A stretch of DNA of 12,067 bases. Origin: a virus. Taxonomy: Duplodnaviria > Heunggongvirae > Uroviricota > Caudoviricetes. This document shows positions 6,001-9,000 of the stretch, one piece after another. How positions within the stretch are numbered: position 1 is the first letter of the stretch; each line of letters starts with the position of its first letter. The DNA lies in the IMG/VR virus record IMGVR_UViG_638341196_000009. One strand, given 5' to 3'. The position numbers are program-made.

Positions 6001-9000
6001 GCAATATAAAAAGCTCGCCGTAGCGAGCTAATAAAATGTATTTCTCTGATATTATGTTTATTTGTATTAGCTCAGACTTGACATCACAGGTTTCGTATAT
6101 AGAACATCATCAAATCTGTCAGTTTGCTATGAATGAGATATAGTAATTGAAGAGCTAACCTCGCATGTCAAAGCCAGATTTCTGAAAATCTCTGTAGACT
6201 TCCGGATTGTTGAAGGCCGGAAATTTGGCTTTATGAGCTGCGGACTTTATCGCTTCGCAATAGGCTTTATCACCGTTACTGGTAGATATTTTTAACGCCG
6301 TGCCATCCTGAGAGAATTCCATATGCAACCTGCATTTTTTCCCTTTCCAGTTATGCGGCTCATCAAGTTTGGCATTAATTGCAGCTCTGATTCCCCGCGC
6401 TTGCGCCCCCCATTCATCCTGATCATCCCAGCGTCCTGAACTGCAACTACCTGTAGCAGTAGTTTTGTGGCAATCTGAAGGGTGTAAAGGTGTGCATCCC
6501 GCAACAAAACCGACCCAAAAAGTCAACATAACGATTTTCTTTAATCCCACTTCTTGCTCCTCAATCCATTAAAATCTCAGCAATAGTAGTTGTTACGTCC
6601 GCCACTGGCTCAGAGCTGACTATCCGCTAAATTTAGCTCAGTGCCGTAGTTGTGTCAGAACAAACCTAAGCCGAAACCGTTTATTACAAAACAATAAATA
6701 TCAGGGTTTAAAATCCAGCACCCCATTTTGAAATACTTTATATACTTCCGGCGAAGGGGGGGCAGGTATATCAGCATTCTTTATCGCATTCATCGCTTCA
6801 CGACATAAATCGAGGTCTCCACTTTCTCTTTTAACCTCCAGTAGAAGGCCATTCGGGGCCATATGCATTCTCAGTGTACACTCTTTTCCTGAATACTTAC
6901 TCGCATCCCCGAACTGTTTTTCGATGGCGCTCTTGATTTGATGGGCATACAGACGGATATCCTCACTAACATCAGAAGTACGTTCAGATGAACTCACATA
7001 CTGTGTCTCTATTGCTTTATCGGAGTAATATGATGTACGGTCATGATAATTTGTCGATACAGCATCAGTGCACCCGATAATAATCCCACTAATAATCAAC
7101 GTAAGAATTGATGCGCTACGAAAACCCATTTTTCCTCACATATGTCATATAGTAAAGGATTATATATACCGTTGTTTTGGACGCTCAAACAGCGAATCAG
7201 ATCAAATAAAACGCACATTTGTTAACATTTACACAAAGTCTGCGTGGGATATTCTGAAAGAATATCCATAATGTGGAGAAAATCTATTGAAGTGCATGGT
7301 GCCGGGTGCCTCCCGGTGAATTCAGTACCAGCACCTGAATCCGCGATTATCCCATATACCTACTCGCTGATTGCCCCTCCGCACAGGGGGATTCACCATG
7401 CCAGTTTCTTTTAACAAACTCCCCGCAAACCAGACAACAGTCAACCGCCTGAATTGTGAAGTATTTAAAAATTTTTCCCGCTAACTGATACCCGGCTAAC
7501 AGTCTGGCGTTTTCTTTTTCAGCAACGGGAAAGCAACAACCACCACACCCGCCACCAGCACACCGTCAGCCAGCACTGACATTATCCGGCTGCTGCAATG
7601 CCATTCACAAAAACAGTAAGCAATCACTTTTTACCGTAACAGGTGATAATCCATACCACAGGTCCTGGCTATTCTGTTGTACTCCTGAACAAGAGCAAAT
7701 AATTCTGAATTAGAAACCATGAACTCATCGCAAACCCTCTGAATAGCATCACTATTCAGAATAATAACGTCTCTTCCCGAAAGACGATCAGGAGTACAGA
7801 ACAAAACTGTCAAACGGCTGAAGGCCTTTGCTCGTGCTGCATTGACTATATCAATACGCTGCCTAAGGATGAAACACCCCGACGCCTCATCAATATGCAC
7901 TCTACCCACACCATATGAATGATAAATATTTAATGCTGAAAAAACCATTAGACCGTATAACAAACACTCAATCAATACTTAACAGAACTTTTATTTTTGA
8001 CAAACATATAATATTTTCAACAATATCCTGAGCCAGGTATATTCCAGTATAAGGCTCTGCCGGAAGGAATCTGGAAGAATGAATATGGCGCGCTGTACTG
8101 GATTCGAACCAGTGACCGATTGCTTAGAAGGCAATTGCTCTGTCCGGCTGAGCTAACAACGCTGAATACCGATAATGGACCGCCATCGGGGACCCGCCCC
8201 CGCACCAACAACCCTGTTATCGTGTCGTCTGCTCTTCCTGATAAGCTAATGGCGGTTTGTGATGGTGGCCCTTGCTGGATTTGAACCAGCGACCTGGCGA
8301 TTATGAGTCGCTCGCTCTCACCACTGAGCTAAAGGGCCGGGAGCAGAATAATAACGGTCCGTAATTAATTCCGCAATAAAAAACCCGCTCGGCGGCGGGT
8401 TGTAGAAACTCTTCTAACGTCAGGCATAAAAAGCCCATCGTTATGACGAATTTACCACAGATTCCGGAAAAATCAACCTTGTTACCTAGTTACCTTTTTT
8501 AACTGCCGCTCAGCCCATGCTTCTTCAATATCAAACCGGGTCACCAGCGCATCATAGAATTTCTTAACTGTTTTTTCCCATGACGCGCGTGTTATCTGGT
8601 TTGTCACCTCGCATATAGCATTAAATACCTCCGTTGATGGTAGTCTTTCATAGCCACGACCACCACAACGCTGGCAGTCTCTGATAACAGGCATACCACG
8701 TTTTACCGACTCTTCACGGTGAATGGCGACACCACGCCCACGGCAATCCTTACAGGCGGTGGAAACCTCACCCTTTCCGCCACACTCCGGACAGGCAACT
8801 TTTACCACCTCCCTGACTTTTTTCCATTCTTCCCAGTAAGACGGATACACACCTTTCGTACACTTTGCCCATACCGGCGGCTTACCATCCGGATACTGGA
8901 CCTTGTTTGTAAAAACTACGCTTTCAATAAATTTTTCCCCATAGCAACAAGGGCACTGCTTTTTACTCGCTGCGCTGCGGGCATAATCCTCAAAAGCGTA

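Follow-up and report, generated by a model that had tools for sequence, protein, structure and literature searches.

What takes the place of the Shiga toxin genes at the head of the late operon in a lambdoid prophage that has the antiterminator and tRNA architecture of an Stx phage? The question is raised by a 12,067-nucleotide (nt) stretch of the IMG/VR virus record IMGVR_UViG_638341196_000009 (Caudoviricetes), analyzed here in full and referred to as the window. A preliminary description, based on the sequence by itself, had noted in this slot an AT-rich open reading frame (ORF) on the minus strand, 114 amino acids (aa) long, and regarded it as an orphan. The mechanical ORF call does return this TTG-started frame (Table 1). 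We conclude that the feature is a genuine coding gene of a catalogued, uncharacterised prophage family of Enterobacterales (phrog_2873 with phrog_4827), whose members are predicted cytoplasmic proteins of about 92 aa. The true coding sequence most likely covers 7631-7900 on the minus strand, from GTG at 7900-7898 to TAA at 7633-7631, and encodes 89 aa. The reading that we favor, with a probability of roughly 0.6, is that of a Q-dependent accessory protein of the late operon, located in the stx-equivalent slot and binding another protein, of which the window carries a deletion allele.

Family membership is the first line of evidence. The ORF matches the phrog_2873 profile at E 4.6e-64 (214 bits), with residues 10-109 of the 114-aa form aligned to profile positions 1-100 of 108; a deletion in the window copy accounts for the 8 unmatched positions at the end, and the intact allele scores E 3.8e-70. 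The ORF also agrees with the PHROG family in length and in its prophage origin. It also matches phrog_4827, weakly, and that group is probably a more divergent branch of the same family. Protein searches recovered near-identical forms in Escherichia coli and Shigella, other E. coli lineages at 56-64% identity, and relatives at 20-47% identity in Citrobacter, Salmonella, Serratia, Morganella, Yersinia and Xenorhabdus. The family spans eight genera, with a length of 91-99 aa kept among relatives at 20-60% identity. A search of 5,426 complete E. coli genomes found DNA resembling the ORF in 1,312 of them; intact alleles each occur on at least 1,000 contigs, and truncated alleles are rare. Every source names these proteins "hypothetical protein", including the 92-aa form P0111 ("MULTISPECIES hypothetical protein [Enterobacteriaceae]"), and the member from the E. 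coli ETEC4075 lineage is annotated by the RefSeq Prokaryotic Genome Annotation Pipeline (PGAP) as WP_001017777.1, 92 aa, with a GTG start.

The earlier claim that the ORF is an orphan is wrong. Confirmed, on the other hand, is that it has no Pfam match at E<0.09 and no NCBIfam match. When 20 family members were scanned against Pfam, the few scattered matches were all at E > 0.01; PADLOC-DB 2.0 returned no family at E<=1 for the ORF or its four neighbors; no Rfam RNA family was found within 7631-8085; and literature searches on DUF3927, the accessions and the PHROG identifiers gave nothing useful. A Xylella protein (P0140, E 6e-8) was rejected as a member, being located among head-tail genes and probably unrelated. 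The 90%-identity database cluster to which the 89- and 92-aa forms are assigned is represented by ribosomal protein L9 (149 aa), apparently through an error of clustering, as L9 and the family are unrelated in sequence.

The second line of evidence is selection. Among three E. coli lineages the ratio of nonsynonymous to synonymous divergence (dN/dS, Nei-Gojobori) is 0.26-0.35 at a dS of about 0.9-1.2, and in more distant pairs synonymous sites are saturated while the proteins can still be aligned. The preliminary description had named an absence of conservation in related prophages as one outcome that would count against a gene; the core is conserved instead.

A structural model completes the picture. 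An AlphaFold2 prediction from a 19-sequence alignment, in which P0019 (64% identical) was modelled in place of the intact E. coli allele, reached a mean predicted local distance difference test score (pLDDT) of 88.8 and a predicted template modelling score of 0.74. The model folds as an antiparallel hairpin of two helices: a helix at residues 3-33, a short conserved loop of 16 residues (TPDR...V.I.) with a small beta element, a second helix at 50-81, and a conserved, strand-like C-terminal tail of 11 residues, which is the lowest-confidence part of the model (pLDDT ~67). Invariant or near-invariant residues are C9, L12, R23, P37, V45, N64, E66, V71, Y74, N75 and A78. The isoelectric point is mildly acidic to neutral (5.4-6.7) and there is no long hydrophobic segment; with an acidic N-terminus and no transmembrane segment or signal peptide visible on reading the sequence, the protein looks cytoplasmic. 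Within the part of the coding sequence that specifies the loop, at 7768-7786 (minus strand), lies a terminator-like hairpin, CGTCTTTCGGGAAGAGACG then TTATTATTCT; in this region such sites are no more numerous than chance would give.

The gene occupies the position of stx in Stx phages, at the 5' end of the late operon. All relevant genes of the window are on the minus strand and arranged as a lambdoid prophage late region, with Q, a tR'-like terminator and the tRNA genes upstream, and a DUF3927 gene, two lipoproteins with TolA C-terminal (TolA-C) domains and the lysis cassette downstream. The tRNA module (8071-8378) shares 84-88% identity with the ileZ-argN-argO module in more than 170 Stx2-converting phages; in one of them, Stx2a_WGPS8, the order is Q, ileZ, argN, argO, stx2A, stx2B. 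Beyond tRNA-Arg, similarity to the Stx2 phages extends for only about 15 nt, which puts the start of the cargo cassette there. The earlier account was right on the slot, and the ORF is indeed the first after the two tRNAs. The counterpart of the CAT tRNA is labelled tRNA-Ile in E. coli MLI107 and ileZ in Stx2a_WGPS8, and going by the annotation of these homologues it would read ATA after lysidine modification. In the terminator scan, the candidate tR' is a hairpin with a 7-bp stem and 5 GC pairs, followed by TTTTTTATTG; a pR' promoter was not picked up by the scan. A weak, sub-threshold Rfam match to isrK (8378-8449, minus strand; 18 bits, E 0.39) spans the stretch from Q to the tR'-like terminator, which is the expected location of a short pR' transcript.

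Beyond the window, prophage copies lie nearly always between Q and holin on the late-operon strand. The neighboring genes vary among loci and position alone is constant: Q ... gene, TerB-like, DUF3927, holins in Citrobacter, where the family gene and the TerB-like gene stand in series; Q, 3 tRNAs, gene, 74-aa ORF, 86-aa ORF, lysozyme in Serratia; Q ... tRNAs, gene, antirepressor-like, holins in Salmonella; Q, methylase, gene, holin in Morganella; Q ... gene, 103-aa ORF, lysozyme in Yersinia; Q ... methylase, gene, DUF1883, holin in E. coli ETEC4075; and tRNAs, TolA-like, AraC-type regulator, gene ... NanS-p-type esterase in E. coli OkiPb01694. A functional tie to the upstream tRNAs was considered and set aside: a tRNA is encoded in the 700 bp preceding the gene at 5 of 9 loci (one of them a plasmid copy), which is inseparable from the common occupation of this slot by tRNAs.

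By scan, neither the interval from tRNA-Arg to the gene nor that from the gene to DUF3927 has a terminator (minus strand 7300-7631 included), and the DUF3927 gene is probably co-transcribed with the family gene. AGA, AGG and ATA codons amount to 7.8 per 100, the highest load of the 17 ORFs in the window, and AGA or AGG makes up 5 of the gene's 10 arginine codons. This load fits co-expression with the two upstream tRNAs that would read those codons, and is no proof of it. The promoter proposed earlier, TTGAAA-16-AAAAAT, is indeed present at 8020-7993 on the minus strand, and its hexamers are kept in mEp460, a copy about 99% identical overall; as a promoter it does not stand out, matching the sigma-70-like consensus at 9 of 12 positions in a region with 4 promoter-like sites against 2.0+/-1.3 expected from shuffles. 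It is overlapped and outscored by a site on the opposite strand (7997-8024, plus strand; TTGACA-16-AACAAT, 10/12), which would drive transcription antisense to tRNA-Arg.

We therefore propose a scheme that is conditional throughout. The architecture suggests that, once Q acts, most transcription of the gene would reach it from pR' by read-through. The AGA, AGG and ATA codons of the gene would be decoded by the tRNA-Arg(UCU) and tRNA-Ile2 encoded just upstream, and translation would be weak, given the GTG start and the poor Shine-Dalgarno sequence. With low confidence, the product may act as a small binding module that contacts a host or phage protein through a conserved polar face of the hairpin, in an accessory role that would be neither structural nor essential for lysis, this last point being equally tentative.

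The allele in the window is a separate matter, and one that the preliminary description missed: it is 3'-deleted and sits in a defective prophage. Relative to E. coli MLI107 and phage mEp460_ev081, 41 bp are missing between two TGGAT repeats, so that the final 8 codons of the intact gene, its stop and 14 nt of spacer are lost. At the C-terminus, ...GMDELRITHLG has become ...GMDYHLLR, with a new stop 3 nt before the DUF3927 start, and the family as a whole conserves the segment that is missing, E-[LIF]-x-[IV]-x-x-x-G. The junction was found in none of the 5,426 complete E. coli genomes; the identical 89-aa allele is recorded in Shigella dysenteriae, on at least 30 contigs. The window copy may thus be functionally impaired, since the deletion replaces a conserved tail in a prophage disrupted by insertion sequence IS2. 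That it is a decaying pseudogene without present function has a sizeable chance of being correct, though somewhat short of even. Two further non-consensus substitutions (N2H and A63S) argue in this direction, as do the state of the prophage, in which IS2 lies between Rz and the tail-fibre gene and head genes have gone, and the host, S. dysenteriae; Shigella genomes are rich in pseudogenes. Against decay, the frame is open with the new stop just 5 codons on, both helices are intact, the lost tail is the part that the model predicts least confidently, and the allele also occurs in a strain that has kept its head genes (L022).

Several observations weigh against the Q-dependent reading of the family as a whole. 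Read-through from pR' is inferred from architecture. All 36 of the listed E. coli matches of the window lineage lack an annotated feature under the match in RefSeq PGAP, as does MLI107, and a close homologue was found in only 1 of 50,697 phage records (mEp460_ev081). At least 27 E. coli and Shigella plasmids carry family members outside any late operon; a 33%-identical branch on E. coli plasmids neighbors a K88-like fimbrial operon and still has a tRNA-Thr some 580 bp upstream. Finally, an intrinsic terminator lies 50-70 nt upstream of the Citrobacter, Salmonella and Yersinia members, and a perfect extended -10 element, TGTATAAT, about 31 nt before the ATG in Serratia and Yersinia, both of which favor autonomous expression.

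These last signals, the plasmid copies far from Q, and the contrast between 1,312 E. coli genomes and a single phage record all speak for the main rival, an autonomous moron that would be expressed from its own promoter independently of Q and would benefit the host by lysogenic conversion, for example as a protective module together with the DUF3927/TciB-like protein and the TolA-C lipoproteins. So does a TATCAT/TATAAT element that three diverged cassettes of E. coli have 14-23 nt before the GTG. Morons in the sense of Hendrix and colleagues reportedly have a distinct composition, their own promoter and their own terminator. The composition here is distinct, as the preliminary description had observed: the core has a GC content of 0.43 (0.41 at third codon positions) against about 0.50-0.54 for the neighbors Q, RusA, lysozyme and Rz. 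Neither side of the gene has a terminator in the window, however, and the sole sigma-70-like site in the window lineage is the 9/12 match, at chance level. The family protein looks cytoplasmic, whereas its neighbors are envelope proteins. In the Serratia/Yersinia/Morganella branch (L014, L018, L027), moreover, the conserved TGTATAATG contains an in-frame ATG about 33 nt before the annotated one, and differences in the 11 codons that follow (MS[VI]QY[VI]LKGYS) look partly synonymous; the protein could reach 110 aa in this branch, or a promoter could account for the conservation. On balance we regard the moron as rather unlikely, and retain Q-dependent expression as the preferred reading.

A bolder interpretation is that the family is a new, widespread phage effector carried in the stx-equivalent slot, acting in counter-defence, lysis timing or protection of the lysogen, for example, through a polar surface formed by R23, N64, E66, Y74 and N75. 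We consider this improbable. As for relatives of characterised function, Foldseek against BFVD and PDB returned nothing at E < 0.16. GapR was the best PDB sequence match in the profile search (E 0.22-0.65), and an hhalign comparison with GapR/UPF0335 (DUF2312), for which the GapR sequence was entered by hand, gave an unconvincing 12.7% over 46 columns. Nothing was found that ties the family to lysis, and the lysis-inhibition cofactor RIII of phage T4 was rejected as a relative at an hhalign probability of 0.06%.

The longer forms proposed in the preliminary description, an orphan of 114 aa from TTG 7975 or 105 aa from ATG 7948, are very unlikely. Gene callers do give 105-, 108-, 117- and 118-aa versions in several databases, the phrog_2873 profile begins 16 residues upstream of the inferred GTG start, at the ATG-10 position, and the window and L003 share a conserved TTGATTGA. 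Homologue length, substitution pattern, frame breaks, structure prediction, and composition with translation signals nevertheless indicate together that both starts are probably wrong, and they place the start of the conserved coding region at GTG 7900, which is codon 26 of the mechanical ORF. The 91-99-aa homologues all start or align at the equivalent position, and the 92-aa P0111 has a GTG start, like the annotated ETEC4075 member. Compared with the 56%-identical lineage, the core differs at codon positions 1/2/3 by 24/23/43, whereas the first 25 codons show 11/10/12 and no third-position bias. A 4-nt indel separates L003 from L006 in the stretch 5' of the GTG, the frame upstream of the GTG is closed in L005 and L006, and the extension is absent from L005 and all remote homologues; the database variants P0007, P0091 and P0092 have a frameshifted N-terminus and an intact core. 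In AlphaFold, residues 1-27 of the 117-aa form have pLDDT <50. The 5' 75 nt have a GC content of 0.31, and the Shine-Dalgarno sequence before the GTG, strong (AGGAG) in the ETEC4075 lineage, is weak (GTGGGT) in the window. Positions 7901-7975 (minus strand), the supposed N-terminal extension, are most likely an untranslated leader, for which the consensus fold gave a -4.8 kcal/mol stem around the start codon only and no convincing covariation.

That the ORF is a chance frame in AT-rich intergenic DNA, as the missing PGAP annotation, the GTG start and the weak Shine-Dalgarno sequence might suggest, is effectively refuted by the conservation data, namely a dN/dS of about 0.3 with synonymous sites near saturation and protein homologues of conserved length at 20-40% identity, as well as by the confident structure prediction and the annotated ETEC4075 member with its strong ribosome-binding signal.

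Table 1. Features of the window, all on the minus strand, in order of falling coordinates
Feature	Position	Strand	Basis or remark
51-aa ORF	11475-11630	-	HokD (type I toxin) in MLI107; PF01848 HOK_GEF in matching S. dysenteriae loci
DUF968	9687-10736	-	
RusA	9300-9674	-	
Late antiterminator Q, 273 aa	8482-9303	-	PF03589, E 8.5e-55
Candidate tR', intrinsic-terminator-like hairpin and T-run 3' of Q	8382-8401	-	Terminator scan
tRNA with CAT anticodon, ileZ-type tRNA-Ile2	8263-8338	-	ARAGORN
tRNA-Arg (UCU), AGA/AGG decoder	8086-8162	-	ARAGORN; Rfam 68 bits; homologous to argN/argO of Stx2 phages
ORF under study, 114 aa, TTG start	7631-7975	-	Mechanical ORF call
41-bp deletion junction	7649..7653	-	Alignment, TGGAT microhomology
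DUF3927/TciB-like, 43 aa, small hydrophobic	7496-7627	-	PF13064, E 1.7e-27; phrog_1470
TolA C-terminal-domain lipoprotein, first	6701-7129	-	PF06519, E 2.4e-23; phrog_5772
TolA C-terminal-domain lipoprotein, second	6155-6550	-	PF06519, E 1.3e-14; phrog_5772
Holin ORF as listed	5688-5960	-	71-aa product annotated in relatives
DUF1327	5369-5683	-	
Lysozyme	4789-5313	-	
Rz	4320-4784	-	
IS2 (InsC/InsD)	2787-4060	-	
Tail fibre	582-2048	-	
Tail-fibre assembly gene	1-582	-	

Over its entire length the window shares 99.98% identity with an S. dysenteriae contig, and its source is a defective lambdoid prophage of this species. IS2 puts Rz directly beside the tail-fibre gene, and the related S. dysenteriae strain L022 (13673-20318) has HNH, terminase, portal, protease and capsid genes in its place; the prophage of the window is thus judged defective, as it has lost its head genes. 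Other features of the region deserve mention. The two TolA-C lipoproteins are paralogous, with lipoboxes IIGC and VAGC read by eye from the sequence, and might serve as decoys for TolA-using colicins or filamentous phages. Between the DUF3927 gene and the first of them, within the late region, lies a full-length match to the small RNA STnc100 (7240-7430, minus strand; RF02076, 114.5 bits, E 6e-26). CdtA, CdtB and CdtC domains of cytolethal distending toxin are encoded in the same S. dysenteriae prophage just outside the left end of the window, 0.5-1.4 kb beyond the tail-fibre assembly gene (L021, 19350-20318; L023, 18433-20318), so its toxin cargo lies at the tail end and not in the Q-tRNA slot.

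The slot between Q and holin of lambdoid prophages is a source of consequential cargo in E. coli, including Shiga toxin, porins and esterases. The present family is a common occupant, found in roughly one in four complete E. coli genomes, under purifying selection and skipped by RefSeq in its main lineage; corrected coordinates and proof that it is real make it a defined target for functional screens. The window's own copy, 3'-deleted in a dead prophage, is of little interest in itself. Nothing found points to an unusual mechanism, and the family is of modest interest.

Finally, the family can be set beside known systems. Structural matches of its predicted fold were to prefoldin beta (1fxk_A), designed helical bundles and Rop, all generic alpha-helical hairpins without sequence similarity to it; as dozens of unrelated hairpins score equally, these matches hold no functional information. 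RIII of T4 is likewise a small, cytoplasmic, helical phage protein, and several family members lie directly upstream of a holin gene. In phage JLK-2012 the same slot, after the tRNAs, is held by tciA-tciB, with TciA directly before DUF3927/TciB; TciA has a TerB domain (PF05099) and is unrelated to the family protein (hhalign probability 0.03%). A further parallel is with the Stx2 phages (Stx2a_WGPS8, 933W-like), which share the succession of Q, terminator, ileZ and arginine tRNAs, and a first cargo gene on the same strand, but have two arginine tRNAs where the window has one. The cargo itself differs: the family protein, at 10 kDa, apparently cytoplasmic and with no signal peptide visible, has no relation in sequence or fold to Stx A/B, the Pfam search at E<0.09 giving no match to StxA (a ribosome-inactivating N-glycosidase) or StxB and the predicted fold being a helical hairpin. 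The stx genes are rich in rare codons decoded by phage tRNAs, and the rare codons read by the tRNAs of the slot are abundant in both stx and the family gene.

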